DNA from: a virus
IMG/VR virus record: IMGVR_UViG_3300032315_000608
Span: 5,341-69,340 of that record
Direction: 5' to 3' (one strand)
Length of the DNA stretch: 64,000 bases
Every line of letters starts with the position of its first letter. Position 1 is the first letter of the stretch. This document shows, in pieces, positions 14,006-45,886 of the stretch. The translations under genes and the position numbers were made by a program. The notes beneath the pieces were generated by a model. That model was not told the origin of the DNA. It was given only the letters and a program-made list of their open reading frames with translations, and did not search any database.

Positions 14006-17000
14006 TTACTGTCTTTCGGGATACAAGATACCCTCTTGATTTTTCTCAAGAAGAACTTGGTATAGGATTGCTTTTTTAATTGGATTTACAATTGCTCGCG
14101 TCGCCTCTCTAAACTGTCCTGGACTCATCGCCTCCAGCTGGGGAATGACTTGGGATAGCTGTTCCTGAATAACAGGACCAGCTCTCATCATCCATTCGTA
14201 CTTCTCGTCCGTTGAGAGTTCCCGTTTGAGGTTGTAGAAATCGTCCTGTGTTAGCTGCTCGCCTTTGGCTTGAGCGTCCTGAATCATCTCAGCCATAGCA
14301 AAATCTTTAAGGGGGCCGGCATCCCAATCCAATGAGGAACGCTTAGATGCAAACATGGAAATAAGCTTATCGTGAATTGCCTGTGGGGTTCTATCCCCAT
14401 TGTCATAAGCTTTAGAATCAACGCCTGTAGTTGTGAGTCGACGTAAGAAGGGAATAGTATTCGCTACCTGTGTCTTTGTGTTTCCGCCAAGGAAATCAAG
14501 GTCAGGTCTACCAACCTTTGAAGCGAAAGGAACGGACTGAGCAAACGTAGATAGAAAATTTTCTTGATACGGGCGCGCGGATGGCGAACCATATATACCA
14601 TTAAACACTTGTTCAAAATCCCGAAGAGTTGCATAACCCGGTATCAGACCTCCCGCAACATTACCCATGGTTTTACTTAGGTTGGTCATGATTCCTTTTG
14701 CGTCTCGCTGGCCAACGCCGGGAGAAGTGAGAGACATAATCTGACGTATGCCAGATAGAGCCGCCATATCTAGAACACCATACATAGCGAGAAGCGCACC
14801 GGTCGCCCCACCAAGTAGGATAGACTCTGCCACGGATCGTTTCTCGTATCGAATAGATTCCGTAATAGCCCCAGCTAGAAGCAGAGGTCCGGACAACCCA
14901 ACGGGGAAACCCTCAAAACTAAAGAAGCTTGGTTTACCTTCACTGAACCTCCCTAGCTGGATGGAGCGAAGTTTGCCTCCGGCGGCAAAGAAAGCTTCGC
15001 GTTGAGCCGGATCCGTTGGTCCCTTGAAGTGAATATTAAAATATGGGTCATCCTCTCCACTCATAGCGTCCTTAAGGAGGAATAAAAGCCCAATGGTAAT
15101 CGCATATCCAGCATTCATTTTTCCAAGCATAAGATCATGCTCAACTGTTCCGGGAACAGGTGGAGGACGATAATATTTAGTGTCCTTCAACATGGCCGCG
15201 GAACCACGATATAACCTGATGGTGGATATTGCGGGGAGAAAATTTAAAACTTCGTTTGCCAAGCTTGATCCAGTTTTTAAGAACTTAATAAACAGCCTTA
15301 ATGGCCACGCCTTGGCAGAGATACTTGTCAGGCCATCGGCCAGCAACCCAAACCAGCCTTCAAAATTGTTTGTATATGTTGATTGCGCTGCGAATGTTTT
15401 TGCTTTTTCCGTCAAATTTTTAACGCTCTCTTCGTCTGGTCTACCCTGCTCGAGAATTTCTTCTACCCGTAACGATTGCTGTTCGGGCGTTAAATTAAAT
15501 TCCTTAGCCTCCGAGGCGGCTTTGGCCTCCGCACGCTTTCTGGCTTCAGGACTTTGATTTAAAAGGCGGGCAACTTCTGTTTCAATCTCATCGTTTGTCT
15601 GGAGACCTTGTGCAATCGCAATGTTAGTTGCCTCTGCAATCTCATACATTTTACGTGAAGAGATTTTATTGATCGCGTCACCAGCTGCCATGGCTCGACC
15701 GAAGAAAATGAAAGGGGCAAGAGCTCCATACTTACTGCTAAGATATTTAGAGTCTAGCGGAATTCGGTATTCTTGTCCGAACACATTTACGGGAAGCTCA
15801 GGCTGAACAGCTCCTGGTTTACCCGCTCGGTAATCTTCCCCTTGTTTTACAATTGCTTCCCAGATATTAACTCCACCCAATTCCTGGGTCAAAGCATCTT
15901 GAATATTTGAATAATCTCCATTAAAGAATACGTTAGCTGCGGCATTCAACGCCGGCTTCTCGCCAGCAAAGATAGCTGAGTTGAGCGCAATCGCCGCATC
16001 CCTATAAGCTTTGGCTCTTGCCTTGTCTCCGCGAACCCCCTTCATCGCGCCAACTGCCGCAAGAATTGCGGCGTTGAGCTGATTGCTCATCGACGAAGAC
16101 CAAGCATTGATACCGATCGTTCCAACTCCTGCCAGCAAGTTGGAAGTTTGATAATTCACGAGCAACTCTCCCCATAGCTGGGGCGAAACCAACTTTACAT
16201 ACTGATACATCTCAGAAATCTTTTTATTCCGAATCATGCCGACCGGATAGAGAGGGAGGTCTTCAATCAACTTGTTGAGCTTCTTGCGTTCTTCCTCTTT
16301 AAGCTCGGGCAATCCAAGCTGAGAATGCATTTGAGCGAATACTTCACTATCGTTCAAAACTCCAAGGTTGGTGGCCTCAATCAAACGGTCTAAAGCTGAA
16401 CGCATCTTCCTAGTCTTACGTTCTTTTTTTGCGTCAAATCTTTTCTTAATTCTTTCTAGTTCTAGCTTACGTTCTTTAGCAATAAGATCCGTCAATCCTT
16501 CCCGCAGGAAATCGGTCACTTCTTTCTTTTGAGCTTCGTCGAGCGTTGTGTTCTGAGTCAGCAATGCACCTAGCTTGTTTTCAAAATCCATGATATCGCC
16601 CTTGCTCGAACGGATGAGACCGCGAATATTAGTTTGAGGCCCACCGATTGATTCGAGAGAACGAACTGCCTGCTTCAGGCTCGACACAGTAAAGGGACGG
16701 CCAAAGGCTTCATCGATGAAAGGCTCAAGTCCAGCGAGTTCTTCTTCGCTATAAACTTCTTTCAAGGAGTCACGCACATTGTCAATAAACTCCATGACAT
16801 CTGGATACTTCTCAATTCTATCACGAAGAACTTCGGCCTCAGTCGGCTTCGGCTCTGGTGTGTAGGTAGGCTGAAGTCCGCCCTGCTCTTTTGTTCTCTG
16901 TGCGATGAGTCTGCGAATACGTGCAGCAAACTCTTCGAGCTGATCTTTCTTCTTTGGCTCTTGCTGTAGACGGGCTGCCTGCTTTTGTAAAGCTTCCGCT

Positions 17001-20000
17001 GATGCTTCCGCCAAAGCTTCAAGTCTCGAAGTGGCTTCGGTAGGAATTGCAACGGGAGCTTGGTCTTTGGCTTTAGCCTTGGCATCAATCACGCGACGAA
17101 TTGCTTCTCCGCGTGTGGCGGGGGGCTGGATGCCCTCGCGGGCGCGAGCTTCGCCAAGAGCTTGAGCTGAGAAAATTTCAAGAGCATTAGTCAAAGCGGC
17201 ATCAAAATAAAGATCGAGTTTGCGTCGAACATTCTCCTGATTCTTTGCGTCCCGCAGAGCTGGGGTAAGCATCAGCAAGCTTTTGATCTGATCCTCGGAA
17301 GCGGCCGTCACGCCAGGGTTTTCAGAACGCTGAATGATCTCAAGTATCATTCGGCTCAGTGCGGTAGTTTGTTCTGGATTGAGACGAATGCCATCGGCAT
17401 CACTTCCCTCAACCTCGGGGGCAGCGGCTAGATCTGCCCCAAGGAATTCCGCTCCATCTGCCAGCGCTTGCTCGCTTCCAACGTATTCTGCTACTGCCGC
17501 TTCGAGTTCGGCAACAGTTGCTTGCTTCTTATTAAGCTCTACAAGTTTTGCAATCTTTTCAATCGTCGACTTTGTCTTCTTATCTGTCGTTAGTTTGTCG
17601 ACAGCTCTACGAGTGGAGTCAACAAGACCAGAGGATATCTCGCTTTCTTCTTCTGCAAAGCCTGTCAGCCTTCCTCGAATCGACGAATCAATTTGTCGGT
17701 TAATGTACATCTTCATGGCTTCTGGATTGTTGGAGAGTTCCCCTAGTGCATTCCAAAGATCAACGGTTCGTCCAGGTTCGGTGCCGTACTTCCTGCTCAA
17801 TAGGAGCATTACCTCGGCCAACTGTTCCCTGGCGTACAGGTCTGTCTTAGCTTTCGCACCAAGAGCATTGGCCAACTCAAATCCAATTGCACCCTGCAAC
17901 GGCAAGGAGCTTTTGATGTTACCGCTCAAGAAAGCGTTGAGAGAATTCTGCAATCCGTTTGTAGCGATATAAGATTTAGCGTCAGCAAATTGTTGTTCGC
18001 GTGGTACAGATTGGTAGTACCAAGCGTCCAGAAGTTTATCTTTCACCTTGCCTTCGGGAAGAACGTCAACGAACTGCGTGACAATATTTTTTACGGCTCG
18101 GCTTTCACGAATCTCAGGGGCTGGTGATACGCGAATAACTTCGGTTGATGGTACTGGGATTGAAACTGGTCCTCCATCTAATGAGACTGAGTTAATGATT
18201 GGTTTCTCAGGTATAATTTCTATGGCTGGAGCCGGAGAGATAACCTTGGCGAACTTATTATATCCAGCATCGCGGAGAGCAGCGATCAGAGGTCCGGGGC
18301 TGGTATAACGTTGTCCGTTATAGTTAACCACTTCCTGTCGTTCGAATAGTCGGATGACGGCATTAGCCGTGGCTTTTGCTTCTGAGGAAGCTGTGGTCGG
18401 AACGGCTATGTTGCCCGGAATCTTGACGCGATATTGTTGATATGCTGGTTGAGGTTCGAAACTTTGTTCGTTGCTGGTCACTTCAGCGGGTGCAGAAGTT
18501 GCCACAAAAGCTGCGACTGGCAATGACCTTCCAGCCTCTTCCATATTCTCGGCTATCTCAAGGGCTTTATTGGCAATCGCTGGAAGACTTGCCCGACCTC
18601 CGTCCATAACGGCTTGCGTTGCGGAACGGAAAAGATCGCGCTCATCAGCCGTAATAATCCCACGGCGTCGGCTAATATCGAGGGCGTCCAGCCACTCCTC
18701 TACGCCAACAGTCTTGAATAAATCATCGGCAACTGTAACTCCAAGTACGCCTTCGGTTCTTCCCTCAAGATGATTCTCAATCATGCGGTAGATTCGAAGA
18801 TCGTATGAGTCAAATACGGTCGCGGCACGGGGTGCAGTTGGTGAAGTTCCCGGAGCAGGGATGGGTCTGGCCGGAGCTTCTCCAGCTTGTACAAATTCTT
18901 TTGATGTTTTGCGAAGTGTGGAGATTGCGTCCTCGATGCTTTGACGCATTACCAAACGATCTTTTGCGTTCGGAGCCAATCCCAATCCACGCTTGACCAC
19001 TGTAGCCATGCTGTCAAACCACACACCGAGTCTAGCGAGAACAGATCTATTCTCCGATTTAATAATATCCTTGAGACGTTGAGTCGCCCGAGCAATGTCG
19101 TTTGCATTTACGGAGTTGACCTGCTCAGTAATTCCGCCCGTTAATTTTAACTGGGATAGCTGACGAATTCCTTCCATAGCAACGAAGAAAGGATCGTTCG
19201 CAAGAGCTTTAATCTTTGCTTGCGTGTCTGGGTTTGTTATGTCGGACCCTAATGTTGCGTAATACAATCTTCCAATAGCTAGTCTGGAGGCTTGAGATAA
19301 TGAATCACCAATCGCAGTGAGTTCTTCGATAGGATCAAGGCCAAGCTCGCGGTAATACCGAAGCGTCTCCATGTGGATCGTTTCTTCGATCAATGCCTGG
19401 GTTATGTAAGACTTATAAGCATCGGGAGCAAGTGCGTTCCTTCCTTTTTCCAGGAGCGCGGGGTTGATTACAATGACGTCGGAATCATTATCTGACCCCA
19501 CCACAACAGCTATTGGATGATTGAAATTCGGATCAAGTTTTACGTTGTAATTATGGGCTTGGCCCTTGGCGTCGCGGAACGTAATTACATTATTGTTGTA
19601 GTCTTTCCCAAGAGCCAACTTTAAAATCTCGTCTGTAGTTGCGATTTGTTCGGGAGTAGGCTCGGCTTCAGAGCGAACAGTAGCTACACGTTCTTGTGGA
19701 CCAGCCGGAAATTCAGTACCTGTAGTTATAGACTCCTCATTTACGGCTCCCGATAAAACTAATTGTTTTAAGAGCCAATCCGCGTAACCAGAACCAATGT
19801 TCATTTTCTTTTGTATAAATGATTTACTAACTGTCTGTTGACCTTTTAGTAATTCCAAAGCTTGTTTAAATCTCGCTTTATCTGTTTCTCCTCTTACTCC
19901 TTGCCCCAAATTATTTATAAACTCTTCTAAGTTTTTAGTAACTCCGCTTGGTTTAACTATAGTTTCTTCAGCCTTCAGCCCTTCAAACCCAGCACCTGTG

Positions 20001-23000
20001 GTGGCGTCCAGCAAGCGGAGCTTGGCACGCATCCGGTCAATGTTCTGTTGGTCAACTTCGGCTTTCGACTCCAAGAAAATAAGATTGGGTCGGCTGGCGC
20101 TGTCAGTACGCCATACCCTATAGATGAGCTGAACAGCTTGAATCGCGCTGACGGGTGGCGACATAATAATCATGTCGCGAGGCTTGTCCCCGAACTTATC
20201 GTCAAGCTCAATTCCAGTGCCGCCCATTTCCTTCGTGGCGATCAGAACATCAGCTGCGTTCTCATTGAAAGCTGCGAGTGCCTGTTCCTTAGTCTGCTCT
20301 GAACCAGTGTACATCCTTGCAATTTTGAGATCAGGAGCAAGGCGAAGGATTGCCGCTTCTACCGCGGCTGAAGTTGGGTCGACCGTTTCTCCGCGGGCAT
20401 TTGTTTCAGAAACAAACCCGACATAGATAACTGGCTTACGACCTTGGCGGATAGATTGGATGGCTCGCTTGGCCGCGGCATCAACTTTATATTCTTCTAG
20501 CGCCCGCTTCTGAGCGGCTACCAGTTTGCGTAATGATGCGATGTCGGTGTTCTGTGCGCCACCATACATGTTCTTGATGTCTTCCAGTTGCTTAATGATT
20601 GCAGAGTCCAACGGAACATCTTGGAACTCTACATTCACACCATCCAATTTGAGGGATCGGGAACGCAGGATTCCATTCTTTACGAGTCCATCGAGATACG
20701 CTTCGAGACGATCTTGCATCTCGGCTTCGGTAACTCCGGGCGACAATGTCCAATAAGATTTCTTTCCACCCCGGAGGTATTGCTTCTCAAACCCAAGTCT
20801 TTTGATCAAGGCATCGGGCGACTCGGTGTCGAAGATACCAAGTCGTCCAAGCGAGAGAAGCTGATCGGGTGTCTCAAACGGAGTTCCAGAAGCCATCAGT
20901 ACTCGACCGGCCTTCTGTGAAATCTCATTCATCAGGATCGACCAAGCGCGGCTCTTACCTTCTTGAATTGCTTTATGCAGATTTCGTCCGGAATGCTGTT
21001 CGTCAAAAATAACAACTGTCTTTGCATTCACTAACGGAAGAATTTTTTCCAAGTACTGCGAAGTGTAAGTGGAGACAACAACTTTTCCTGGCACATTCTC
21101 AATTGGAAGACCGCGACCACTCTCACCCTTACCACCACGAGCCGCGATCGGAACGCCCATCAATCCGGCATCTTTCTCAATCGAACCGCCGATTGTGTTG
21201 AGATCCCAGTTCGGGGTAACGGCATCGGGAGCCGTCAAATAAAATACATTAAATCCTTTGTTGAGATAGTATTTGGCTGCCGCCAACAACACTCGGGTCT
21301 TGCCAGTTCCAGGACCATTAGCCAAGTAAAAAGCTTTATGCTTGGAGCTTTCCATCGTGGTGATGGCCGCCGCCGCATCTTGCTTTTGCTCTGGAGATAA
21401 GAGGCTAGTAGTTTCTGATCCGATCGGATCTAGAACTTTCTCGCTGTAAGGTTTGCCTAGCTGGTTGCGGGATTCGACGAAGGACTTGGGGATGGGGACG
21501 CCACGAGCGCGTTCAGCTCCAGGTCTCCCGACTCCGGTTGCCCCACCTGCAACAGCTCGTCCCACTTCTTCCCGCTTAACGGGAACGGTTTCTTGAGAAA
21601 CTCGCTTTGTGGTGGCAGCACGTTTGGCTTCGATTTCCGCGAGCTTCTGGCGAGCTTCCTCACGTCGATCATCGGCTGTTTTGGCTTTTGGCTTGGGGGT
21701 TGGTTTAGTTGTTGGTTCTTCATATGTTCCTTCCTCGTTGGTGGTAATTCCGCTATCGGCCAGAATCTGGTCGTTGACCTTTAGCAGATTTGATCGGAAG
21801 GTGGCGGCAATATTGTTCTTTGCCGGTCCCTCTTCCATTGTTTGAGAAGCCAGATAAGGCTCCGCAAGTTTGTTTAATTTATCGACATAGTCATCGGACT
21901 GAGCTTTGGAAATGTTTCCGTCATCGAGGGCAGTCTTAAGATTGCTGTCGACCGCTTCAGCCAGTTCAGTGATACCCTCAGGAGAAAGTTTAGACTCAAC
22001 TACGGAATCCATATATCCTTCAAAAGCCCGAAGGATATTAACGGAGCGGGTGCTTTGGGTTTGTTCGAGCAATGCCTTGGCGGAGGCAAGCTCTACGTCG
22101 TCAAAGAAATCATCGGCCTGTAGTTTTCGGAAGCGTTCGATTGCTGGCTGGATTTGTTTAGCAGTTAGACTTCCCTCTCGGACAATTCCTTCTGGTTCCA
22201 CGACCTCTCGAACTGGAAGAGTTCCAGCTTCCTGATTCTTGCGGTATTCAGCCTGTAACGCAGAAACAAACTTCTGCTGAACCGCCGGCTTCAATGCATT
22301 GATGTTGTCGACAGTAGTTCCAATCTTAGCGGCATCTTGGGCTGTAGCTCCTTTACCGGAAGTCACGGAGTCAAACGCGAGTTTCTCGGCTTCAGTTCCT
22401 AGCGATTGCCTAAAAGGTGCTTGAAGGTTCTGGGCAAGAATGGAAAGGGCTTCTTGCCTCTGGGCTGGCGAAGGAACGTCAGAAGGATTGGCAACTTGAT
22501 TGTCCACCTCTGTTGCATCGATCTGGTCGAGGGCTTCGTTGATCGCTCCGGCAACGGCGGGGTTGATTCCTTGTTCCTCGGCCAGCGTATCAGCATCGAC
22601 TGCATTAACACGAAGGCCGGGAGTCTCAAGGCTAACAGCCGCGCCAAGACCAACTCCCGCGCGCATCCGAGGAACAGCCCTGCGGATAAAGTCCCGAAGT
22701 CGGCTATTAAAAATTGTGCTTAAGGAAAGATTGTTCTTGCCTTGTCTGAGTTCATACAAAAAGCTGTTGATGGTCGCGGCAGATACTTCATCGGCAATAT
22801 TATATTTTTGATATCCAGCCAGCGACTTGCTCTGCAAATAAGATCTCTTACGGTTGACATAAGCCAGAACAGTTTCGGCTGGGGTCATTATGTTGCGACC
22901 GTTCTCGTCGATCGCACCAAGACTTTGGAGCAACTCGATTGTCGCGGGATTCTTTAAGTTAAATACTGCACCGAGAGCCTCGCTCGAATTCTCTCGAGGA

Positions 23001-25489
23001 TCTGGCTCTAGCTTTTGATACTTCTGGAAAGACTCGCTTTCGGGGTTGTTGATCGGGAGAACGATATCGGGACGGGCTTCCAATTCGGGGGCCAGCTTTC
23101 CAGTTCTGGCTTCTTTCGTAGCTTCGTTCTCAAATTGCTGAACTAACTTAGATACCGACTCTTCGCCACGTACTAACCGGGCAGCCTGTCCCTCAATCTG
23201 CATGGCTTGAAGTCTTGCAAGTTGTTCCTGCATGGCGACGGCTTCATCTGCCGGGGCTTCCTTTATTTTATTTTCAAGAACATTAATTTGATCCTGAAGT
23301 TTTTTAGCATTGATCTCGGCTGGTTTCTCCTGCTCAATCAGCTCTTGGCTTTTGGCCAGTTGGCTTTCCAAGGCGACTTCATAATCGGTTGGGCCGAGAT
23401 ATTTTCTGGCAACTTCTTCGATGGCGTCGTCTGTTCCAGCTTTCTCCAACTCAGAATTCATTTGGTCAATCTCGTCGGTCTCAAGACCAATCTCTTCCGC
23501 ACGCAGAATAAACTGATCTTTTAACTCTTGCTTAAATTCAATCGCAGGAATCCCGTTCATCCAATTGCCAGCGTCAGTTTTTACATTCGTTACAGAATAG
23601 GTTTTTCCGTCTTCGGACAATTCACCAATTACCCGACCCTGACTCTCAAGCCATTGAATCTTCGAAGCATTCTCTGGTGTATTAGAAAGGTTAATGGTCG
23701 TGGCACCTTTCTCAAAGACACCAATCAACTCGTTGAGTGCTGAAAGCTTTTCCTCTTCGGTTTCAGGAGCTCTAGTTTCAATCGTTGCTGGCGTACCGAT
23801 TTGCCCCTCTGCTTTTGAAATCTCCTGTGTCAACATGGATTCAACCGATCCTTGCTTCGCGGATTCTACTGCTTCGTCTGCTACCTTTGTTGTCTCGGGA
23901 GTGGTTACCGTATCAAGGGAGGAACGAACATTGACAGCATCAAAAAGAGATTGAGCCTTTGGTGAGGTTAAGGATTGACGAAGTTGGGCTAGTTGTTCCG
24001 CCTTCTGTTGGTCATTAAGATTTGGATCAACTTTAATGCTCGATACTGTTTGCTCTAAAGATTTTGCAAATCGATCGTCCGCTAATTTATATATCTTGGC
24101 TCGACGATTTGCGATAGACGCTGCCCCTATAACTCCAGGGATTGCCATTCCAAGTCCAATACCTCCCGATACAGCCAAGTTCTGGAGCAAAGGTTCTACG
24201 GGATCTTGACCGCGGAGGATGGCCTCAATTTCTTCTGATGCAGTTTCTCCGAGGGTGGTTCCAACTACTTTCCCCGTGCTACCAACTAAAGGCGCAAGGG
24301 CTGGAATTTTTGTGGCCAATGCTTTTGCGGCGACGTGATTGGCTAGGGCGTTATCGATCGAGTTTTCTAATTTGTTTCCAGCACCTTCGGCTAAACCCAG
24401 AACTGCACTCTCGCTGAATATGGAGGACAGACGCTGGGGGACGGTTAGATTCCGTGGGTCGCCCTCGAAAGATTGCGATGCCCCGATAGTTGCATAAGTT
24501 GCCCCTCTGGAAAGAACGGTCGGAACTTTGATAGCTTGATCTGCGATCTGGCCAGCTTTACCCAATAGCTTTGTGGCACCGGCACCAACTCCAATAAACG
24601 AACCCACAGATCCGAGGGCCGATCCAGCCAAGGTTCCGGTCATGTAATCTTTTTGAATTGTATTGTTAATTGCGTTGGAAAGGGCGGCTCGACGGGCAAC
24701 TTGGTCGGGATTGTTTTCGTCAACTATGATGTCACCGAGAGAAACAAAAGGTAGGAAGGCATCGCCAGATTGAATTGCAAAGTTCCGCAGGCTGGCCGAT
24801 CCCAATTTTTTAGAGCGATCGCTTTCAAGATCTCGAAGATAGTTTTCGGCCATTGCCAAATTCATTCCAAGCTTCGCTGTTAGAGGTCCCGTGCCAAAAG
24901 CCATCGCTGGCTTCTCGTCTTTCGGAACGATTGACTTTCCGCTGGTTAATTCATCCTCGTAAAAATTTCCAAGCTCCAAAGCTTTAGCTGCCTGCGCTGG
25001 GTCGGTGATTGTTCCTACATAGTTTCGGGCAGCAAAACTTTTCTGCGTTGCTTCGGCTTCCTCATTTGTAATTCCAAGGCCAGCTTGCAAGTAAGCCCCC
25101 ATAGTCTTTCCCACGCCAAGAAGGGCGAGCTTGGTAAGTTCACCCCAGTCGCCTTTTTTCTCTGCATCTAAAATCTTTTGGCTAGACTCAAGTGAATAGT
25201 TGCGGACGTTGTTTTGTACGTCTTGCCACGCTTGGGTGTTGAATGGAAGTTTCTTTTCTTGGAGTCGAGTCGCCAGACCACCGATAAGATCGGTTGACTG
25301 CGGGTCATCCCTAAGATCGATTAGATTTTGAGCTTGCGCGAGATTGGTGGGCGGGGCTGAAAATAAGGAGTTAATCTCCTGTTCGGGGGTAACTCCAGAA
25401 GGAGCAAACAATGCGTCGATAGCTTGTTGCTCACCCTCGGGGAGACTCGCTATATCAAGCTCTGTCTCAGGGTTAAATGGATCCGCCAT
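14006..25489 (-). CDS. giant polyvalent virion/ejection protein with SF2 (strawberry-notch/DarB-like) helicase
   Basis: 3827 aa; last gene of the internal-protein block; NGPGTGKT, IFDEQH, MASGT, GGTGIEL, RVWR helicase motifs; EETIH peptidase-like motif. Confidence 0.8.
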   Translation of the reverse strand: MADPFNPETELDIASLPEGEQQAIDALFAPSGVTPEQEINSLFSAPPTNLAQAQNLIDLRDDPQSTDLIGGLATRLQEKKLPFNTQAWQDVQNNVRNYSLESSQKILDAEKKGDWGELTKLALLGVGKTMGAYLQAGLGITNEEAEATQKSFAARNYVGTITDPAQAAKALELGNFYEDELTSGKSIVPKDEKPAMAFGTGPLTAKLGMNLAMAENYLRDLESDRSKKLGSASLRNFAIQSGDAFLPFVSLGDIIVDENNPDQVARRAALSNAINNTIQKDYMTGTLAGSALGSVGSFIGVGAGATKLLGKAGQIADQAIKVPTVLSRGATYATIGASQSFEGDPRNLTVPQRLSSIFSESAVLGLAEGAGNKLENSIDNALANHVAAKALATKIPALAPLVGSTGKVVGTTLGETASEEIEAILRGQDPVEPLLQNLAVSGGIGLGMAIPGVIGAASIANRRAKIYKLADDRFAKSLEQTVSSIKVDPNLNDQQKAEQLAQLRQSLTSPKAQSLFDAVNVRSSLDTVTTPETTKVADEAVESAKQGSVESMLTQEISKAEGQIGTPATIETRAPETEEEKLSALNELIGVFEKGATTINLSNTPENASKIQWLESQGRVIGELSEDGKTYSVTNVKTDAGNWMNGIPAIEFKQELKDQFILRAEEIGLETDEIDQMNSELEKAGTDDAIEEVARKYLGPTDYEVALESQLAKSQELIEQEKPAEINAKKLQDQINVLENKIKEAPADEAVAMQEQLARLQAMQIEGQAARLVRGEESVSKLVQQFENEATKEARTGKLAPELEARPDIVLPINNPESESFQKYQKLEPDPRENSSEALGAVFNLKNPATIELLQSLGAIDENGRNIMTPAETVLAYVNRKRSYLQSKSLAGYQKYNIADEVSAATINSFLYELRQGKNNLSLSTIFNSRLRDFIRRAVPRMRAGVGLGAAVSLETPGLRVNAVDADTLAEEQGINPAVAGAINEALDQIDATEVDNQVANPSDVPSPAQRQEALSILAQNLQAPFRQSLGTEAEKLAFDSVTSGKGATAQDAAKIGTTVDNINALKPAVQQKFVSALQAEYRKNQEAGTLPVREVVEPEGIVREGSLTAKQIQPAIERFRKLQADDFFDDVELASAKALLEQTQSTRSVNILRAFEGYMDSVVESKLSPEGITELAEAVDSNLKTALDDGNISKAQSDDYVDKLNKLAEPYLASQTMEEGPAKNNIAATFRSNLLKVNDQILADSGITTNEEGTYEEPTTKPTPKPKAKTADDRREEARQKLAEIEAKRAATTKRVSQETVPVKREEVGRAVAGGATGVGRPGAERARGVPIPKSFVESRNQLGKPYSEKVLDPIGSETTSLLSPEQKQDAAAAITTMESSKHKAFYLANGPGTGKTRVLLAAAKYYLNKGFNVFYLTAPDAVTPNWDLNTIGGSIEKDAGLMGVPIAARGGKGESGRGLPIENVPGKVVVSTYTSQYLEKILPLVNAKTVVIFDEQHSGRNLHKAIQEGKSRAWSILMNEISQKAGRVLMASGTPFETPDQLLSLGRLGIFDTESPDALIKRLGFEKQYLRGGKKSYWTLSPGVTEAEMQDRLEAYLDGLVKNGILRSRSLKLDGVNVEFQDVPLDSAIIKQLEDIKNMYGGAQNTDIASLRKLVAAQKRALEEYKVDAAAKRAIQSIRQGRKPVIYVGFVSETNARGETVDPTSAAVEAAILRLAPDLKIARMYTGSEQTKEQALAAFNENAADVLIATKEMGGTGIELDDKFGDKPRDMIIMSPPVSAIQAVQLIYRVWRTDSASRPNLIFLESKAEVDQQNIDRMRAKLRLLDATTGAGFEGLKAEETIVKPSGVTKNLEEFINNLGQGVRGETDKARFKQALELLKGQQTVSKSFIQKKMNIGSGYADWLLKQLVLSGAVNEESITTGTEFPAGPQERVATVRSEAEPTPEQIATTDEILKLALGKDYNNNVITFRDAKGQAHNYNVKLDPNFNHPIAVVVGSDNDSDVIVINPALLEKGRNALAPDAYKSYITQALIEETIHMETLRYYRELGLDPIEELTAIGDSLSQASRLAIGRLYYATLGSDITNPDTQAKIKALANDPFFVAMEGIRQLSQLKLTGGITEQVNSVNANDIARATQRLKDIIKSENRSVLARLGVWFDSMATVVKRGLGLAPNAKDRLVMRQSIEDAISTLRKTSKEFVQAGEAPARPIPAPGTSPTAPRAATVFDSYDLRIYRMIENHLEGRTEGVLGVTVADDLFKTVGVEEWLDALDISRRRGIITADERDLFRSATQAVMDGGRASLPAIANKALEIAENMEEAGRSLPVAAFVATSAPAEVTSNEQSFEPQPAYQQYRVKIPGNIAVPTTASSEAKATANAVIRLFERQEVVNYNGQRYTSPGPLIAALRDAGYNKFAKVISPAPAIEIIPEKPIINSVSLDGGPVSIPVPSTEVIRVSPAPEIRESRAVKNIVTQFVDVLPEGKVKDKLLDAWYYQSVPREQQFADAKSYIATNGLQNSLNAFLSGNIKSSLPLQGAIGFELANALGAKAKTDLYAREQLAEVMLLLSRKYGTEPGRTVDLWNALGELSNNPEAMKMYINRQIDSSIRGRLTGFAEEESEISSGLVDSTRRAVDKLTTDKKTKSTIEKIAKLVELNKKQATVAELEAAVAEYVGSEQALADGAEFLGADLAAAPEVEGSDADGIRLNPEQTTALSRMILEIIQRSENPGVTAASEDQIKSLLMLTPALRDAKNQENVRRKLDLYFDAALTNALEIFSAQALGEARAREGIQPPATRGEAIRRVIDAKAKAKDQAPVAIPTEATSRLEALAEASAEALQKQAARLQQEPKKKDQLEEFAARIRRLIAQRTKEQGGLQPTYTPEPKPTEAEVLRDRIEKYPDVMEFIDNVRDSLKEVYSEEELAGLEPFIDEAFGRPFTVSSLKQAVRSLESIGGPQTNIRGLIRSSKGDIMDFENKLGALLTQNTTLDEAQKKEVTDFLREGLTDLIAKERKLELERIKKRFDAKKERKTRKMRSALDRLIEATNLGVLNDSEVFAQMHSQLGLPELKEEERKKLNKLIEDLPLYPVGMIRNKKISEMYQYVKLVSPQLWGELLVNYQTSNLLAGVGTIGINAWSSSMSNQLNAAILAAVGAMKGVRGDKARAKAYRDAAIALNSAIFAGEKPALNAAANVFFNGDYSNIQDALTQELGGVNIWEAIVKQGEDYRAGKPGAVQPELPVNVFGQEYRIPLDSKYLSSKYGALAPFIFFGRAMAAGDAINKISSRKMYEIAEATNIAIAQGLQTNDEIETEVARLLNQSPEARKRAEAKAASEAKEFNLTPEQQSLRVEEILEQGRPDEESVKNLTEKAKTFAAQSTYTNNFEGWFGLLADGLTSISAKAWPLRLFIKFLKTGSSLANEVLNFLPAISTIRLYRGSAAMLKDTKYYRPPPVPGTVEHDLMLGKMNAGYAITIGLLFLLKDAMSGEDDPYFNIHFKGPTDPAQREAFFAAGGKLRSIQLGRFSEGKPSFFSFEGFPVGLSGPLLLAGAITESIRYEKRSVAESILLGGATGALLAMYGVLDMAALSGIRQIMSLTSPGVGQRDAKGIMTNLSKTMGNVAGGLIPGYATLRDFEQVFNGIYGSPSARPYQENFLSTFAQSVPFASKVGRPDLDFLGGNTKTQVANTIPFLRRLTTTGVDSKAYDNGDRTPQAIHDKLISMFASKRSSLDWDAGPLKDFAMAEMIQDAQAKGEQLTQDDFYNLKRELSTDEKYEWMMRAGPVIQEQLSQVIPQLEAMSPGQFREATRAIVNPIKKAILYQVLLEKNQEGILYPERQ

Positions 25490-40075: not shown

Positions 40076-40102
40076 AAGAGTTGTCTTTCTTGAAAGAGTA
40101 TG

Positions 40103-40131
40103 ATCCCCCGGGGGATAGAACCCCGGGGGAC
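40103..40131 (-). terminator. terminator after the capsid genes
   Basis: TCCCCCGGGG...CCCCGGGGGA hairpin, followed on the - strand by CTCTTTC. Confidence 0.6.
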
Positions 40132-40141
40132 CAATTAGTTA

Positions 40142-40411: not shown

Positions 40412-41836
40412 TTAGCTAACGTAGTCAAGGCTAATGGCAGGCCGTGTGTGCAGGATGACGTAGCCATACTGCGGGAACACGGGCCGAGCACCACTGGCCA
40501 TCACCCCGCGGAAATATCCGACATTTCCGTCCGGGTTGAATGCCCGATCAAGGATGTTGACCCACTTGAACTCACCGCGGTAATTCTGAGCGTTGAAGCC
40601 CATCTTGTTACCAACGGCAATCGGGCTAGGAACCACGGAACGCATAACATCTTGATGGAAGATGTAGCTGATTTCGTAGCTAGCCGTCTCGTAGGCGGGG
40701 TTAATATTGTAAGCATATCCTTTGGTCGTGTTAGGAACCGTTTCCCTGCGGAAGGGGAACACGCGGATGAGCTTATCGTTAGTCGTATTGAACACGTTGA
40801 AGCGTGGGGGATACGGGTCGATGGAGTGGTAGAAACCACCGTAAGAACGCTCAATGCCGAGAGGCGTGAGCAATTCATTCGGTTTGGCATACCGGAAGTC
40901 CTGGCGAATGTCGGCATTCAACCGGATCAGGTTTTCGCTGGTTTCAGCACCGCAGATAAGCATGAACACCGGAGCTCCGTTTTCACGGCCCATAGCATGC
41001 GTACCCGCGCCGTCGCGGATCAACTTCATGTACAACCGTTTCAGGATACCTTGTGTCAGCTGGCTCTGGGGCAGAGCGTTAGCAGCAAAGTCAGTGGAAT
41101 TACAAGTTCCGCTACCAGTGGTAACGGCATTGTAAACACCAACCAAGTCAGTCACGCTGATGCTGTAAGCATTCGACCCAGTCGAGTTGACAGGGAGAAT
41201 ACCAATGGTGGAGGCGCTGGGGATAACAAGGTTACCTTCAGCTGCGACCTGCTCGGTGAAGAGCTGGCGATAGCGATCCTGCCAAACCAAGGAGGTCGAA
41301 TCAGTGAGGACATCCATGATGTTGGAGAGCTGTTCTTTGCGTTTAACGGCAAAGCGCAAATCTTCCAGGGCGATATCGGGGGAATCAACCGAGGCCCACT
41401 TCAAGCTGTACTGACGGAGCTTTTGTCCGAAAGTAACGCCAGTGAGGGGGATGGGGAGTGCGTTTCCAGCCGTCGACGAGGGTGAGCTCGAGGACACGGG
41501 TGGTTGGCTTCCACCCGAGATGGTCTGGGTGTAAGCATTGAACCCGGTGTAGGTCTGGTCAATCGGATTCGATCCGAGGTTACGCCAACCGTATCCCGCG
41601 TCTCCGGTGATATCACCAGCGGTATAACCGTTGGCGGTAGAGGCAGCGATGCTGCTGGAGGGGTAGAAACGTTCGAACGTGACCGAACTGATCACATCGC
41701 CCATCTCCTCGGGGAATTGTTCCTGTTTAGTGAGTTTGAGCCAGGCAGAAGTATCAACGGTCCGGCGAAAAATCTCCGGTCCGATACGCCCAGCTTCTTT
41801 AACGAGCAACTGCTCGATAGAGTAAGTAGTAGCCAT
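40412..41836 (-). CDS. major capsid protein
   Basis: Position after the scaffold, 474 aa, strong codon bias, GAAAGGA RBS; YRGEFKWVN motif. Confidence 0.8.
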   Translation of the reverse strand: MATTYSIEQLLVKEAGRIGPEIFRRTVDTSAWLKLTKQEQFPEEMGDVISSVTFERFYPSSSIAASTANGYTAGDITGDAGYGWRNLGSNPIDQTYTGFNAYTQTISGGSQPPVSSSSPSSTAGNALPIPLTGVTFGQKLRQYSLKWASVDSPDIALEDLRFAVKRKEQLSNIMDVLTDSTSLVWQDRYRQLFTEQVAAEGNLVIPSASTIGILPVNSTGSNAYSISVTDLVGVYNAVTTGSGTCNSTDFAANALPQSQLTQGILKRLYMKLIRDGAGTHAMGRENGAPVFMLICGAETSENLIRLNADIRQDFRYAKPNELLTPLGIERSYGGFYHSIDPYPPRFNVFNTTNDKLIRVFPFRRETVPNTTKGYAYNINPAYETASYEISYIFHQDVMRSVVPSPIAVGNKMGFNAQNYRGEFKWVNILDRAFNPDGNVGYFRGVMASGARPVFPQYGYVILHTRPAISLDYVS

Positions 41837-41839
41837 AGT

Positions 41840-42060
41840 AGTAGTATTTTCCTTTCAACCTTCCCCTGCTCGCGCAAAGGGTAGGTTATGATTTATAGTA
41901 AGTACGCCAACCCCTATCGAGGTTATCCGTCCTCACTACGACTCAAAACTTTTCCCTGGCGGCATCCCAGAGCTTTTAATGCCCGAATTCTGCTAGACCG
42001 TCTCAATCTTTATAGGTCTTGTTCAGTAAGGATCTCAATCTTTATACCTGTGCTGAACTA
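41840..42060 (-). ncRNA. structured capsid 5' leader (candidate cis-regulatory RNA)
   Basis: Two hairpins share the 14-nt loop sequence UAUAAAGAUUGAGA; three further hairpins follow. Confidence 0.55.
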
Positions 42061-42064
42061 GTTA

Positions 42065-42092
42065 AAAGTATCAACCGGATGGAACGTGTCAA
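42065..42092 (-). promoter_or_regulatory. capsid promoter, 16-bp spacer, extended -10
   Basis: TTGACA-N16-TACTTT with TGn. Confidence 0.6.
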
Positions 42093-42107
42093 TAGCTTTT
42101 AACAAAT

Positions 42108-43313
42108 TTATTTCATTCCCCGTTCAAGGGCTTCGACAAAGCTGATATTAGCTGGTATTTCAACCCCGCCACCCTTCGCTCCACCGGAAGAAGGCATGGT
42201 GGATCGAAGTTCTTTAGTCAGCTTCTCAAGTTCAGAAATACGGGTCTGAGTCTTGGCCACGTAATCCTGAAATACATTCATAACCACAGGCATAGCCGCA
42301 GCATTAAAGGTTAACTTGGCTTTAGCCCTAGGATCAAGCTCAGTATTTTCAATCTGCATGGCCTGCTGTTGGATATTGTTTAAGGTGCTATTCCAAGCTT
42401 CATTCCCCTCAATAGGGCGCAATAGAGCATTTTCTTTTTGGAGATTTTGCCACTCAGACTCATAAGCAGTTTTAACCTCTGACTCTATTCTCTGCTGAAA
42501 AGCTGTCGCTTCCTTCTGCTCTTCGGCTTGGATCATCTGTAACACAGTATTAACATCTTTAGTTAGAACTTCTCGTCTATCAAAGACCCTTTGAAGTTCT
42601 TCTGCCTTGCTTCGAATAGCTAAAGAATCTACTGGGTCAAATGCACTTGTGGCTTCTTTTAACAAGGCGCGACGTTTTGCTGGGTCTGGCTCAACCATTG
42701 CGGCGTAGATATTCCGGGGATCAACTCCCTCGTAAAGCTTGGTGATATCGGAAACTTCTTGCTGAATGCTGTTTAAAGGCTCAGTAACGGCTTGTTTATA
42801 TTCCCTGGTAGATTCCAGTCGAGAGAACTTCAACTCATTCTCGTACTCATCGCGCTCCTGCTTGAGCGTATTAAGCTGGTTCTGCAAATCAATCTGCTCG
42901 ACCGAATTAGTGGGAGCTTCGGAAACTTTGCCTTCAAGTTCTTTCAGCTTTGAGCGTGCTTCGCGCAAATCTTTGGTTAAACGGGCCCAAGCAGTCTGAG
43001 CTTCGGGCTTAAGATTCTCGGGTGCTTTAACATCCAAGTCATCGGAAACAGCTTCTGTCTTCGTGACTTCTTCTTGTCCAGTCATCCGTTTAGTCAAAAT
43101 ATCGAGAGGATTGGTGGAGGTAGACGCATCAGTCTTGGCTACTTCAACGGGTTTTGTGGTTTCGGCTGGGGCCGTCACAGCGGTTGCGACGGGAGCTTCA
43201 GTCGCGGGAGCTTTGTCTAGGGCTTCAAATCCAGCATCAAATGCATCGGCAAAACTAAGATTTTCCGATCCTGTTGCTGTAGATGTGGGTTCTGCGGTTG
43301 CTGTTTCACTCAT
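42108..43313 (-). CDS. capsid scaffolding protein
   Basis: Acidic low-complexity N-terminus, long coiled coil; between portal and capsid genes. Confidence 0.7.
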   Translation of the reverse strand: MSETATAEPTSTATGSENLSFADAFDAGFEALDKAPATEAPVATAVTAPAETTKPVEVAKTDASTSTNPLDILTKRMTGQEEVTKTEAVSDDLDVKAPENLKPEAQTAWARLTKDLREARSKLKELEGKVSEAPTNSVEQIDLQNQLNTLKQERDEYENELKFSRLESTREYKQAVTEPLNSIQQEVSDITKLYEGVDPRNIYAAMVEPDPAKRRALLKEATSAFDPVDSLAIRSKAEELQRVFDRREVLTKDVNTVLQMIQAEEQKEATAFQQRIESEVKTAYESEWQNLQKENALLRPIEGNEAWNSTLNNIQQQAMQIENTELDPRAKAKLTFNAAAMPVVMNVFQDYVAKTQTRISELEKLTKELRSTMPSSGGAKGGGVEIPANISFVEALERGMK

Positions 43314-43619: not shown

Positions 43620-45886
43620 GCTTTTGGTGCGTTGGGTGTACTCATCGCAGCACGAAGGTTAGCTGCGGCTTGTGCGTCTTGTAAAGCTAATTTTTGTTTT
43701 AATTCCGCTTCTTTAAAGCGCGCATCAAGCTGTGCTCTCTCCTGCTTGAGTTGCATGTCGAGTTGATGCTCCTGCATTTTCATCTGCATCTGAGGCGAGA
43801 TGCCCTGCACTTGACCTTGTTCTAAAGCGATTTGCTGCTGTTGTTCGTTGGCCGCTCGGATATCCTGCTCGACATCCCTCTGTAAATTCACAACGGCTTC
43901 GCGTAAAAGGTTCATGGCGAGTTTAGCTTGGCCGATTTCCTGTTGCTTTGTCTTGTCGTCAACAATTCTAAGAAGGTGTTCATTCGAGTGCTCGTATACC
44001 ATGGTGAGGAACATCATGGTCGCTTGCTTATCCTGAATCTGGTTGTTTTGAACAGCCTGAACAATTGGTTGAGTTTCTTTTAAATGTACGGCCAAATGAA
44101 TTGCATGATTTTCGTTAGGCATTACCGTCACCTGTCTGCCGGCTTGCATCGAGCCATTTTCAAGTTCTGCAATCTTAGCGTCAGCCGGGATGCGATTCTT
44201 GACATTAGGGTTTGGTAGATATCGATCGACCTGATCGTAACCAACACGAGCGGCTACTCGATCTCGAATCGCATTGACCTGACCGAGTTCGTCAAATCTA
44301 GGTAGCATCTGCATGAACTCGTTGAAGGCTGACAAGCGAGCTGCTGGAGATCCAAGTCCAACTGCCCTTACGGCGTCAACATCATAAACAGCTTTAACTG
44401 CTTCCCACGGAACACCACGTTCTTCGAGTCTGGTGCGGAATTTTATAGCTCCCTCAGATCCCTCTTCTCCAGGAACCCATGTATCGCGTTGTAGCCTTCT
44501 GAATTGTTCGCGTAGCAAACGTCCCCAAGGAACGTAGAACAAATTCATGGAGTTGGTGGTTAGTATCGCCTCGTTCGCAACTTGTGCTTCTACCTCCGTA
44601 GCCGTGCGTGGATTACCGGTAGGCGCATTCATTTGGGTTCGGTAAGAGCCAGTATTGCTCTGACGAACCATCGCCATCTCGTTTACAATCGGCTGCACAT
44701 TCGCGGCCAAATTTGGATACTGAGTTTGAACAACATTCAATCCTGGAGGCAGAAAGGATAATGGTCCAGAATAAGCCATCGTCATCTTGGATACATCTTC
44801 TGCGCTCTGCGGTTGCAAGAGAACTGAGGTCTGCAACATGGCTCCATCTGCCATGGCGCAACGCAAACGATTGGTCATCTGAATGTGCGGGAAAATCTTA
44901 TAACCTAAACCACGAATCGAATAATAAAGACCATTACCAATGCCATAAGTAAAGATATGGAAAGCCTCCGAAGCGGTCTTAAATCTATGGAGTTTTTTAA
45001 ACAAGAAATCGCCAGAACCGTCACGAAGTCCAATGGCGTGGGAATAAGTTCCATCAAATTCCCTTACGTAATAATGAATGACGTGAATTTCTTTTGCTCG
45101 AACGTAAGAAAAATAAAGATCATTCGACTTTAACTGTCTTTGCAATTCTTCCCAGTTAAGACCGTCGCTAGGATAAGTTGAAGTGGCATTGCGGATCGCC
45201 TCTCTTACTGCGTCTACATTCCAACCCGCTTCTTCTGCAACCTTTGGATTCTCAATATATTGATAAAGTTCGTGGACCAAAAAAATCCTTCGAACAGCAG
45301 CAAACTCCACCTTATCTTCTGTGGCGGGAGTTCCGCGGGGCATGAAGAAATCTCCAATTGGGCATACAGTCCACTGCCAATTTCGTTCGTCTTCAAAATA
45401 AGCAACACCAAGACCTTGAGCTACAAAGTAATAGGAAAGTAACTGTTGTTTAAAATAAAAGCTGGACCAATCTTTTGTAAGAAGGCGTGTGAACTCTTCT
45501 GCAATTATAGACGCGTATTCTTCACGCTGGCTCTCATCGCCAAATCTTGTTTTAACATTAATCAATCGATCAACAGAAGTAATCAAATCATTGTAGGACG
45601 TAAGGGCTTTTTCCAAATCTGCCCCGGCTTCACCGAAGTTCAGATTGGCTCTATAGCTTTGACCGAGTCTACGTAAGGCAACGGGATCATAAGGGGCGGC
45701 TCCGTCGAACATGTCCATAATACGGGCGCGGTCGCGGGCTCCCTGCTCGTCCGCCATGTATAAAGATTGATAGATTGAAAAGAGCCCGTTCTGGTCGGTG
45801 ATCCTAGTTTTTGGTGCTTTTCCGGTTGGTGATAGCGTTTTTAGATAATCATCAGGAACGGAATTCGTATTGTATTGAGGTTCCAC
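43616..45886 (-). CDS. portal protein
   Basis: After the terminase; RTATEV motif, ENHAIHL..H, Q-rich C-terminal barrel; start moved to GTG 45886 because a promoter (TTGACA-N17-CATACT) overlaps the TTG. Confidence 0.8.
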   Translation of the reverse strand: MEPQYNTNSVPDDYLKTLSPTGKAPKTRITDQNGLFSIYQSLYMADEQGARDRARIMDMFDGAAPYDPVALRRLGQSYRANLNFGEAGADLEKALTSYNDLITSVDRLINVKTRFGDESQREEYASIIAEEFTRLLTKDWSSFYFKQQLLSYYFVAQGLGVAYFEDERNWQWTVCPIGDFFMPRGTPATEDKVEFAAVRRIFLVHELYQYIENPKVAEEAGWNVDAVREAIRNATSTYPSDGLNWEELQRQLKSNDLYFSYVRAKEIHVIHYYVREFDGTYSHAIGLRDGSGDFLFKKLHRFKTASEAFHIFTYGIGNGLYYSIRGLGYKIFPHIQMTNRLRCAMADGAMLQTSVLLQPQSAEDVSKMTMAYSGPLSFLPPGLNVVQTQYPNLAANVQPIVNEMAMVRQSNTGSYRTQMNAPTGNPRTATEVEAQVANEAILTTNSMNLFYVPWGRLLREQFRRLQRDTWVPGEEGSEGAIKFRTRLEERGVPWEAVKAVYDVDAVRAVGLGSPAARLSAFNEFMQMLPRFDELGQVNAIRDRVAARVGYDQVDRYLPNPNVKNRIPADAKIAELENGSMQAGRQVTVMPNENHAIHLAVHLKETQPIVQAVQNNQIQDKQATMMFLTMVYEHSNEHLLRIVDDKTKQQEIGQAKLAMNLLREAVVNLQRDVEQDIRAANEQQQQIALEQGQVQGISPQMQMKMQEHQLDMQLKQERAQLDARFKEAELKQKLALQDAQAAANLRAAMSTPNAPKA

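Follow-up and report, generated by a model that had tools for sequence, protein, structure and literature searches.

This locus raises the question of whether two adjacent hairpins, which present the same apical loop at the very start of a phage capsid message, form a genuine RNA element, and what such an element would do for the gene behind it. The hairpins lie on the minus strand of a stretch of 64,000 nucleotides (nt; positions 5,341 to 69,340 of IMG/VR record IMGVR_UViG_3300032315_000608), hereafter the window, whose coordinates are used throughout. They were noticed in a first-pass annotation made from the letters of the window. Comparison with the leaders of relatives shows that the capsid message opens with a strand-specific, multi-helix RNA that is restricted to phages and combines a deeply conserved core with a duplicated loop motif. 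We consider it very likely that this is a genuine, selected and structured RNA leader, and it probably sets the output of capsid protein.

Twin hairpins at the start of the capsid leader

The two hairpins, P1 and P2, together cover 64 nt (42058-41995, minus strand), the same span as first annotated:

42021..42058, minus strand: hairpin P1, with 42058-42047 paired to 42031-42021 (11 pairs, one bulge) around a 15-nt loop at 42032-42046
41995..42019, minus strand: hairpin P2, with 42019-42015 paired to 41999-41995 (5 pairs) around a 15-nt loop at 42000-42014

Both 15-nt loops open with the same 14-nt word, TATAAAGATTGAGA, of which the window holds exactly two copies, at 42033-42046 and 42001-42014; the annotated repeat in adjacent hairpins can thus be read directly from the sequence. 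With up to three mismatches allowed, the word finds 15 matches in the window against a shuffle mean of 7.23, and none of 100 shuffles reaches 15. By our own arithmetic, an exact 14-mer repeat within 100 nt is expected by chance about 0.02 times per window.

Relatives were collected through the capsid gene. A capsid search of IMG/VR gave 34 loci and a capsid-alignment search, reaching ~35% identity, gave 79, the combined 113 loci reducing to 71 distinct upstream regions. Lineages were delimited by capsid identity: A, the group of the window (72-95%); B (42-46%); C (45-54%); G001, a single 80-kb record (44-50% over matched segments); and D, E and F (35-41%). Two hairpins with look-alike 15-nt loops are present in each of lineages A, C and G001, whose 40 distinct leaders make up alignment A5. 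Across the inner P1 pairs, P2 and the core hairpin P3 (described below), 97.9% of cells in A5 are paired, compared with 85.4% when partners are shuffled and 35-52% when the strands are slid; 10 of the 18 pairs show compensatory changes, and none of 500 shuffles reaches the observed values on four of five measures. The 20 sequences of lineage A, folded with RNAalifold, give a similar picture for 57 pairs including the pseudoknot (98.7% paired vs. 94.3% in shuffles and 37-46% in slid controls), with 17 pairs compensatory and 0/500 shuffles matching on four of five measures.

These changes are spread over both hairpins. In lineage A, RNAalifold and pair counts identify compensatory changes in 4 of the 11 P1 pairs, with 97.3% of cells paired, and the three inner pairs pass from AGG/CCU to UCC/GGG between lineages. 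Three of the five P2 pairs are compensatory, the middle one changing from A-U to G-C between lineages. The outer P1 stem of lineage C has another register and length, in which 154 of 182 cells pair, 32 of them as G.U; lineage A has 41 G.U pairs in 416 cells. These G.U pairs show that the structure is selected in the capsid-sense RNA and not in DNA, and together with metatranscriptome contigs that cover P2 and half of P1 they indicate that the hairpins are present in RNA.

The loops, which are purine-rich, are nearly fixed. Over the 40 leaders, loop 1 has 10 and loop 2 has 9 invariant positions among the first 14, and within one genome the two loops agree at 11-14 of these. All 26 lineage-A leaders have U at position 10 and A at position 14, and all 14 leaders from lineage C and G001 have G at both, the two loops changing alike. 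This concerted switch fits a single partner that reads both loops. The spacing between the loop repeats is 32, 33, 34 or 36 nt (25, 2, 8 and 5 leaders, respectively). The twin hairpins are therefore genuine, their conservation being the decisive evidence; the comparison of leaders suggested by the first-pass annotation recovered both the stem covariation and the loop conservation expected of its conserved loop on variable stems.

Trees place this 5′ domain in one part of the family. Lineage A groups with C in the capsid tree (100/100), the portal tree adds G001 on a long branch (85/88), and the resulting group is sister to B. Given this topology, the simplest history would be a single origin of the twin-hairpin domain in the A/C/G001 clade, or its replacement in B, which has a different 5′ domain that also covaries. 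The twin hairpins are an accessory, clade-specific module of a larger leader.

Predicted pseudoknot core and modular architecture of the leader

The whole leader is ~229 nt long and has seven helices, lying 5′ of the major-capsid reading frame. Alignment shows it to be modular, with an ancient core, a lineage-specific 5′ domain and a variable 3′ hairpin domain before the ribosome-binding site. The first-pass annotation overlooked this larger leader, along with the accessory status of the twin hairpins and the deep conservation of the P3 core. Downstream of P2 the features are:

41978..41983, minus strand: predicted 5′ strand of a pseudoknot, GGCAUU, complementary to the P3 loop bases GAUGCC
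41954..41972, minus strand: core hairpin P3, a 6-bp stem closed by an invariant 7-nt loop (GAUGCCG, 41960-41966)
41885..41949, minus strand: 3′ domain, in which P4 (41943-41949/41885-41891) encloses P5 (41934-41939/41895-41900) and P6 (41919-41930/41904-41914)
41863..41881, minus strand: hairpin P7, directly 5′ of the ribosome-binding site, 100% paired with one-sided changes only
41834..41856, minus strand: Shine-Dalgarno sequence GAAAGGA (41850-41856) and start codon (41834-41836), conserved in relatives

P3 corresponds to a CUGG/CCAG hairpin of the first-pass annotation, which proves to be real and covaries in other lineages. Four of its six pairs are compensatory across lineages (three of six within lineage B), the stem occurring as CUCUGG/CCAGGG, CUCCGG/CCGGGG, CUUCGG/CCGAGG, CUCUGC/GCAGGG, UCUCGG/CCGGGA and CUCCCU/GGGGAG. 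With its surroundings it forms a nearly invariant core of ~35 nt across lineages whose capsids share only ~45% identity. In lineage B this core is almost unchanged, with GGGCA upstream and an A-rich linker before a 6-bp hairpin whose loop is again the invariant GAUGCCG. A second core type, found in D, E and F, has GAGCU or GAGCC as its upstream strand. The linker after it can include an additional hairpin, and the pyrimidine/purine stem, called here at 4-7 bp, closes a loop of 6-9 nt in which GGCUC is complementary to the upstream strand over 5-6 bp. The core architecture is thereby traceable in capsid leaders down to ~35% capsid identity, at 75-148 nt from the start codon. The alignments show it to be kept across the capsid relatives examined, L195 being the only one of the 71 distinct upstream regions without a recognizable core. 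The P3 hairpin with its predicted pseudoknot is, on this comparative evidence, the older and more deeply conserved part of the leader.

The P3 loop and the upstream strand are predicted to form a pseudoknot, their complementarity extending to 6 bp in lineage A and to 4 bp in B and C. On the assumption that the two core types are homologous, both sides have changed in two of the four pseudoknot pairs common to them. A small reading frame that starts at the AUG in the P3 loop (M-P-P-G in the window) was considered and rejected, as the peptide is not conserved (M-P-A-G or M-P-G-E in relatives), its length varies, no Shine-Dalgarno sequence precedes it and the AUG is missing from the second core type.

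Within the 3′ domain, compensatory changes affect 4 of 6 pairs in P5 and 6 of 10 in P6, and P4 is without variation in lineage A. A GAGG/CCUC hairpin had been annotated here; this was a mispairing, and covariation instead supports AACCUC/GGGGUU nested in pairs of the GUAGUG/UUACUA type. The annotated hairpin abutting the ribosome-binding site, P7, pairs completely in lineage A and finds support in one-sided changes only. The Shine-Dalgarno sequence is predicted to be mostly unpaired in lineage A (pairing probability 0.18-0.44 in three representatives) and paired in two lineage-C representatives (0.86-0.87). Hiding of the ribosome-binding site was dropped as a common theme because of this inconsistency; values for lineages D, E and F were set aside, since their loci do not begin at the start codon.

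The element is single-copy and confined to these phages. A DNA pattern for the core finds 46 matches in viral contigs, one per contig and all with the 6-bp stem. A covariance model of P1-P2-P3 gives one match of 90-135 bits in each of the eight twin-loop genomes and one of 31-42 bits in each of four lineage-B genomes, with none in four D/E genomes and one marginal extra match (E = 0.62). A scan with the lineage-C twin loops hits 26 places, of which 21 are on contigs with a capsid leader (19 already known, 2 new) and the other five are unrelated AT-rich coding repeats. Among bacteria and archaea (one genome for each of 185,579 species), the core pattern has 36 matches, none with the hairpin; these were judged to be chance, with flanking stems of 0-3 bp in GC-rich, coding-like DNA.

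Searches against known RNA families and phages were likewise negative. Rfam 15 has no match in the whole window at gathering score, and at E ≤ 10 the region 41700-42300 yields only mir-205 (24 vs. 55 bits, on the opposite strand in coding DNA) and CRISPR-DR8 (14 vs. 39). In seven loci of other lineages, Rfam reports only a small-RNA match below threshold and, outside the leader of L136, a group I intron, so that the Rfam check proposed in the first-pass annotation returned nothing relevant to the leader. Against 50,697 phage records, neither the leader (blastn) nor the capsid (tblastn) has a match, and terminase and DNA polymerase have only matches of ≤27.5% identity. The full-text literature searched contains no description of a capsid-leader RNA of this kind, though supplementary motif lists of RNA-discovery papers could hold one.

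Promoter, capsid gene and neighborhood

The leader has its own promoter of the sigma70 type, conserved among relatives. The features that bound the transcribed unit are:

42087..42092, minus strand: -35 hexamer TTGACA of the capsid promoter, invariant in 20/20 lineage-A leaders
42065..42073, minus strand: TG-extended -10 element TGaTACTTT, separated from the -35 by a 16-nt spacer and nearly invariant in lineage A
42058..42059, minus strand: predicted transcription start, 6-7 nt past the -10, which would coincide with the first base of P1
40412..41836, minus strand: major capsid protein gene, 474 amino acids, HK97 fold, N4-gp56-like (AF2 and Foldseek)
40101..40133, minus strand: 13-bp GC-rich hairpin closing the capsid unit, a terminator-like site after an 82-amino-acid open reading frame (ORF)

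A strict pattern (TTGAC. as -35 and a correctly spaced.A...T as -10) is present in 41 of the 71 distinct upstream regions, and G001 and lineage C share the promoter layout. The -10 was assigned from its conservation together with a step in RNA depth.

Twenty-one runs recorded as RNA (15 coded lake or freshwater studies) contain 9-29% of the words sampled from a 1.3-kb stretch. Contigs from four RNA runs (X1-X4) were placed on the leader, where gaps in cover prove nothing. Contigs of X3 have depths of 134-164 over 41960-42047, 249-570 over 41696-41871 (the 3′ end of the leader and the start of the capsid gene) and 12-14 upstream of 42048. In X4 the depths are about 127-280 against 25, with high-depth cover stopping near 42003, and X2 has no cover beyond 41961. 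One X3 contig (depth 159, 41943-42040) runs into Illumina adapter at 42040, inside the P1 loop. This was seen in one run only and points to a preferred RNA or cDNA 5′ end in that loop; position 42040 on the minus strand could be a processing site or a preferred cDNA end. Taken together, the contigs hint that the hairpins are transcribed at the level of the capsid message, and that transcription starts, or the RNA is processed, at P1 or just within it.

The 271-nt gap that holds the leader lies between a 401-amino-acid ORF (42108-43313) and the 474-amino-acid ORF (40412-41836). Modeled with AF2 on an alignment of 56 sequences (pLDDT 67.8, pTM 0.71), the 474-amino-acid protein has the N4 capsid as its top PDB match in Foldseek (9e99_A, E 2.9e-11), followed by Moo19 and DEV; there are 171 matches at E ≤ 0.001, and those listed are all phage capsids. 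A language-model look-up likewise pointed to a capsid. AF2 with only nine sequences was unusable (pLDDT 39), PHROGs and Pfam, including Pfam on 56 capsid homologues, gave no capsid family for this protein, and a PDB sequence-profile search returned only designed-ankyrin matches on a short stretch, judged spurious. On the strength of the model, the ORF is identified as an HK97-fold, N4 gp56-like major capsid protein, and this upholds the placement of the hairpins in a capsid leader. The gene after the leader is a capsid homologue wherever downstream DNA is available, whereas the upstream gene varies among relatives, so the element belongs to the capsid gene.

This uncultured phage is distantly related to the N4-like phages, and the window covers 64 kb of its virus record, which is complete, measures 69,340 bp and has terminal repeats. 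On the strand of the leader, a portal-sized ORF of 769 amino acids and a terminase (PHROG 38) lie upstream, and about 26 kb of structural genes lie downstream. Also downstream is a 3827-amino-acid ORF (14006-25489, minus strand) in the position of the N4 virion RNA polymerase, in which Pfam recognizes only helicase-type domains (ResIII, Strawberry-notch-like) around residues 1366-1832. Some relatives have an insertion next to the leader. L136 carries a complete group I intron (979-1224, plus strand; RF00028, 66.9 bits, E 3.8e-15) ~50 nt upstream of the capsid promoter, and similar text occurs upstream of the promoter in L173, L179, L052 and L061, which are among the contigs of lineages C and B. 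The intron is missing from close relatives such as L172, indicating an insertion polymorphism adjoining the conserved AGGTATTGACA.

The hairpin at the end of the capsid unit has a GC-rich stem of 13-15 bp, which covaries between lineages, and a conserved 7-nt loop. Loop and closing pairs read GG-UUC-N-A-N-Y-CC, which we take to resemble a tRNA T-arm on a stem of the length of an acceptor/T-minihelix. Of 39 loci, 24 have the motif in the 900 nt that follow the capsid gene; in loci of the L120-L184 type it lies 16-350 nt downstream. From its sequence, the hairpin could be a mimic of a tRNA minihelix that serves as a 3′ stabilizer or processing signal; ARAGORN calls no tRNA gene in the window. 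The same 11-letter T-arm-like word recurs at 14387-14397 (plus strand) with a 5-bp flanking stem, antisense to the 3827-amino-acid ORF, and may be chance, as 15 of 100 shuffles give at least three matches. Separate transcription of a capsid unit has a parallel in the N4-like phage LUZ7, in which, according to the part of the study that we consulted, separate start and stop sites have been mapped around the capsid and gp57-like genes (PMC9163698).

Function of the leader and its relation to known RNAs

The reading that we rank first is a leader on which a protein or the ribosome docks and which controls the stability or translation of the capsid message. From the sequence comparisons we give it a probability of roughly 0.45, autoregulation being included as a sub-case. 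Such a leader would act in cis and post-transcriptionally, tuning the output of the most abundant virion protein. P1 would begin at or within 1-2 bases of the 5′ end of the transcript, so that the message would start base-paired, and this would slow 5′-end-dependent decay; 5′ stem-loops protect E. coli messages from such decay. Rigid stems would keep the two identical loops 32-36 nt from each other as a two-site docking platform for one bivalent partner, which is the simplest reading of loops so spaced that change in concert. This partner might be a dimeric phage or host protein, or the 30S subunit with S1 in standby. The pseudoknot core would be the conserved functional center, coupling docking to mRNA stability, to ribosome loading some 75-120 nt 5′ of the start codon, or to both; the invariance of its unpaired bases suggests that it is recognized by a protein, the ribosome or a tertiary contact. 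As a complete mechanism, comprising 5′ protection, two-site docking and coupling through the core, the proposal is a tentative one.

The first-pass annotation had suggested a repeated binding site for a dimeric protein. The concerted loop changes agree with one partner for both loops, but a partner search by phyletic profile (519 own ORFs, tblastn against 15 genomes) gave no clean candidate and was confounded by phylogeny; since the twin-loop lineages form one clade, the profile carries no independent signal. A 72-amino-acid ORF (8948-9166) was present in 7/7 twin-loop and 0/8 other genomes, but was rejected because a hidden Markov model (HMM) found weaker homologues in G011, G009 and G013, which lack twin loops. 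This basic protein, encoded on the plus strand, is 68-96% identical between lineages A and C, compared with about 50-55% for capsid and portal, and it has a 37% homologue in G001 and weak HMM matches in B and D genomes. It belongs to no Pfam family, and Atlas provides only a weak histone-fold lead (0.84).

Several further observations weigh against the docking leader as set out here. Lineage B and the more distant lineages have no twin hairpins yet keep the core, and the hairpins are thus not essential to the basic function of the family. The pseudoknot strands are invariant within each core type, which makes their pairing untestable by covariation there, and the one switch between types is its sole covariation support. 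MAFFT puts the pseudoknot partners of the two types out of register (alignment A7), precluding a formal pair count across types, and the loop strand is flanked by only 0-2 bases per side, implying a tight geometry; for these reasons the pseudoknot is called predicted. The folding energy of the leader is unexceptional (minimum free energy -61.8 kcal/mol, z -1.86, 7 of 200 shuffles folding as well), and the accessibility of the Shine-Dalgarno sequence differs between lineages A and C as described above. The capsid promoter is missed by a simple consensus scan, since its -10, TACTTT, matches only three of six positions, and the X1 contig crosses it at even depth. Finally, the RNA evidence consists of assembled contigs of relatives with one depth value each and possible DNA carry-over, and depth is for this reason treated as a hint only.

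Other explanations were weighed on the same evidence, and we order them, after the docking leader, as its autoregulatory sub-case, a self-contained tertiary fold, a put-like RNA, a riboswitch, a trans-acting RNA and a DNA operator. In the autoregulatory case, free capsid or the 401-amino-acid head protein encoded upstream would bind the twin loops as a dimer and throttle capsid translation to match assembly, as in the T4 gene 32 and gene 43 operators and the P22 scaffold. The concerted loop changes would fit a coevolving phage-encoded partner, and the capsid (about 50% identity) and the 401-amino-acid protein (33%) also diverge between these lineages. The loops are nevertheless ~170-200 nt from the start codon with stable helices between, the lineage-A Shine-Dalgarno sequence is predicted to be open regardless, and lineage B has the same head genes without twin loops, which leaves this version of the docking leader unlikely. 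Somewhat more doubtful is a fold that needs no protein, in which the twin loops would be peripheral docking elements (A-minor or T-loop-like) bracing the core, much as peripheral domains brace the cores of large ribozymes and riboswitches. The replaceable 5′ domain, with lineage B putting another covarying domain on the same core, and the A-rich loops would suit such a fold; two identical loops would need two equivalent receptors, of which none is evident, and the T-loop pentamers fail in lineage C and G001. A put-like RNA, whose promoter-proximal hairpins would engage the host polymerase during transcription and keep it from pausing or terminating along the late genes, appears improbable. The put RNAs of phage HK022 are ~70 nt long with two stem-loops, putL lying just downstream of its promoter, in the part of their description that we consulted (PMC9378689); P1 and P2, two stem-loops of together 64 nt from about +1 of a host-type promoter, have this layout, and ~26 kb of structural genes follow on the same strand. 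Against it, there is no terminator inside the leader, the strong hairpin at the unit end looks designed to stop much of transcription, lineage B does without the hairpins, Rfam offers no match of any kind, and the apical loops are conserved here, whereas the polymerase contacts of put come from both stems as far as the source consulted describes them.

A riboswitch, in which the core would bind a metabolite or ion through its invariant unpaired bases and switch capsid expression, is less probable again. The near invariance of ~35 nt at only ~45% capsid identity and an architecture like that of an H-type pseudoknot with an A-rich linker speak in its favor. There is, however, no expression platform in the leader, as the minus strand has no terminator-like site in 41836-42062 and pairing of the Shine-Dalgarno sequence is inconsistent between lineages; the core is distant from the start codon; riboswitch classes normally occur in cells, whereas 0/36 bacterial matches have the hairpin; and Rfam again gives no match. 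The different loop sequence of the second core type also makes a common ligand pocket doubtful. Action in trans, with the leader or a fragment processed from it serving as a decoy, an anti-defense RNA or a cofactor of assembly or packaging, seems quite improbable. Such an RNA would be made at the level of the most abundant late message, and the contig ending in adapter within the P1 loop hints at a discrete 5′ end, but there is no terminator or conserved processing hairpin before the capsid reading frame. The sole trans target examined, a 13-of-14 complement of the loop in the portal mRNA (45759-45772, plus strand), was taken as chance, as 7 of 9 distinct relatives have CAACAG or CAAAAT there yet keep the leader loops. 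Kissing of the leader loops with the T-arm-like loop at the 3′ end was also rejected, the pairing being imperfect by eye and the lineage differences not compensating. The alternative raised in the first-pass annotation, a 14-bp direct repeat in DNA at about +13 and +45 that binds a regulator of the capsid promoter, with incidental hairpins, is the one we find hardest to credit. Its 32-bp spacing, about three helical turns, just downstream of the promoter would be apt. The flanking stems covary so as to keep pairing, though, and their G.U pairs would be A.C on the other strand; the spacing varies between 32 and 36 nt, breaking any helical phasing; and the RNA contigs include the repeats.

A broader reading would join both ends of the unit, with the 5′ core and twin loops capturing a host machine (the ribosome or S1 in standby, or the polymerase as in put) and the 3′ hairpin mimicking a tRNA acceptor/T minihelix, the two forming a new class of cis-acting RNA. 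An N4-like phage would then commandeer the host expression machinery for its capsid with no dedicated protein factor. Judged from the sequences, this is an outside chance, on a par with the tertiary fold.

Structured cis-regulatory RNAs are well catalogued in bacteria and poorly catalogued in phages. With more than 70 distinct examples, ample covariation and a constant genomic role as capsid leader, the element described here is a candidate new RNA family of a widespread, uncultured freshwater clade of N4-like phages, for which the invariant core is a sensitive sequence marker in metagenomes and metatranscriptomes. If the twin loops are a bivalent docking site, they would provide a compact natural model of two-site RNA recognition. 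Should the pseudoknot of the core recruit ribosomes or modify polymerase, phages would have a new route to prioritized capsid synthesis, and the core would be a portable expression part.

Among known systems, the leader shares with HK022 putL and putR two adjacent stem-loops (65-70 nt) directly after a host-type phage promoter and a proposed action in cis, as far as the source consulted describes put. It differs in having the apical loops as the conserved, duplicated part, and in the pseudoknot core that follows within a short capsid unit closed by a strong hairpin. Put RNAs bind the zinc-binding domain of the polymerase beta-prime subunit, suppressing pausing and termination further on. The present leader also has no Rfam match, put having been compared by description only.

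The leader of T7 gene 10 has its own strong promoter and a 5′ stem-loop with a translational enhancer, which boost the stability and translation of the capsid message. Both capsid genes thus have their own promoter and a transcript that opens with a stem-loop. The T7 leader is short, simple and made by the phage polymerase, whereas the one described here has ~229 nt and seven helices behind a host-type promoter, with duplicated loops and a predicted pseudoknot. In the leader of T4 gene 32, an H-type pseudoknot far upstream of the start codon is an autoregulatory operator conserved among relatives. The present leader has, by prediction, an H-type pseudoknot in a similar place; stable covarying helices occupy the intervening region, which in T4 is unstructured for cooperative protein spreading, and the gene regulated would be that of the capsid and not of a single-stranded DNA-binding protein.

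Control of translation, or protection of the 5′ end, by elements about 100 nt upstream of the start codon is also known from the E. coli tisB leader, which has a ribosome standby site with a pseudoknot, and from the flhDC leader, at whose 5′ end a CsrA dimer bridges two hairpin-loop sites tens of nt from each other. A two-site target of CsrA/RsmA is commonly defined by two hairpin loops, separated by 10-60 nt, that both contain GGA. GGA occurs in both loops of 14 of the 40 leaders (lineage C and G001) and in neither loop of the 26 lineage-A leaders, including that of the window, so that a canonical CsrA site is not conserved.

Interdigitated T-loop modules are known from T-box stem I, RNase P and the L1 stalk, and each lineage-A loop contains two U-N-N-purine-A pentamers, the basis of a T-loop module put forward in the first-pass annotation. 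By the usual definition, each T-loop pentamer has a conserved U as its first base and a conserved A as its fifth. The first pentamer (UAYAA) is kept, but the second has U10/A14 in only 26 of the 40 leaders and G10/G14 in the other 14, in both loops, which puts G and G at the expected U.A pair in lineage C and G001. In the shifted register, position 9 is C and not U in 15 of 40 P1 loops. These differences weaken the T-loop proposal, the more so as the pattern carries little information and both pentamers would have to fit one 15-nt apical loop. We therefore see the leader as a new RNA family of a known general kind, the structured cis-acting leader, set apart by duplicated apical loops that covary on a pseudoknot core.

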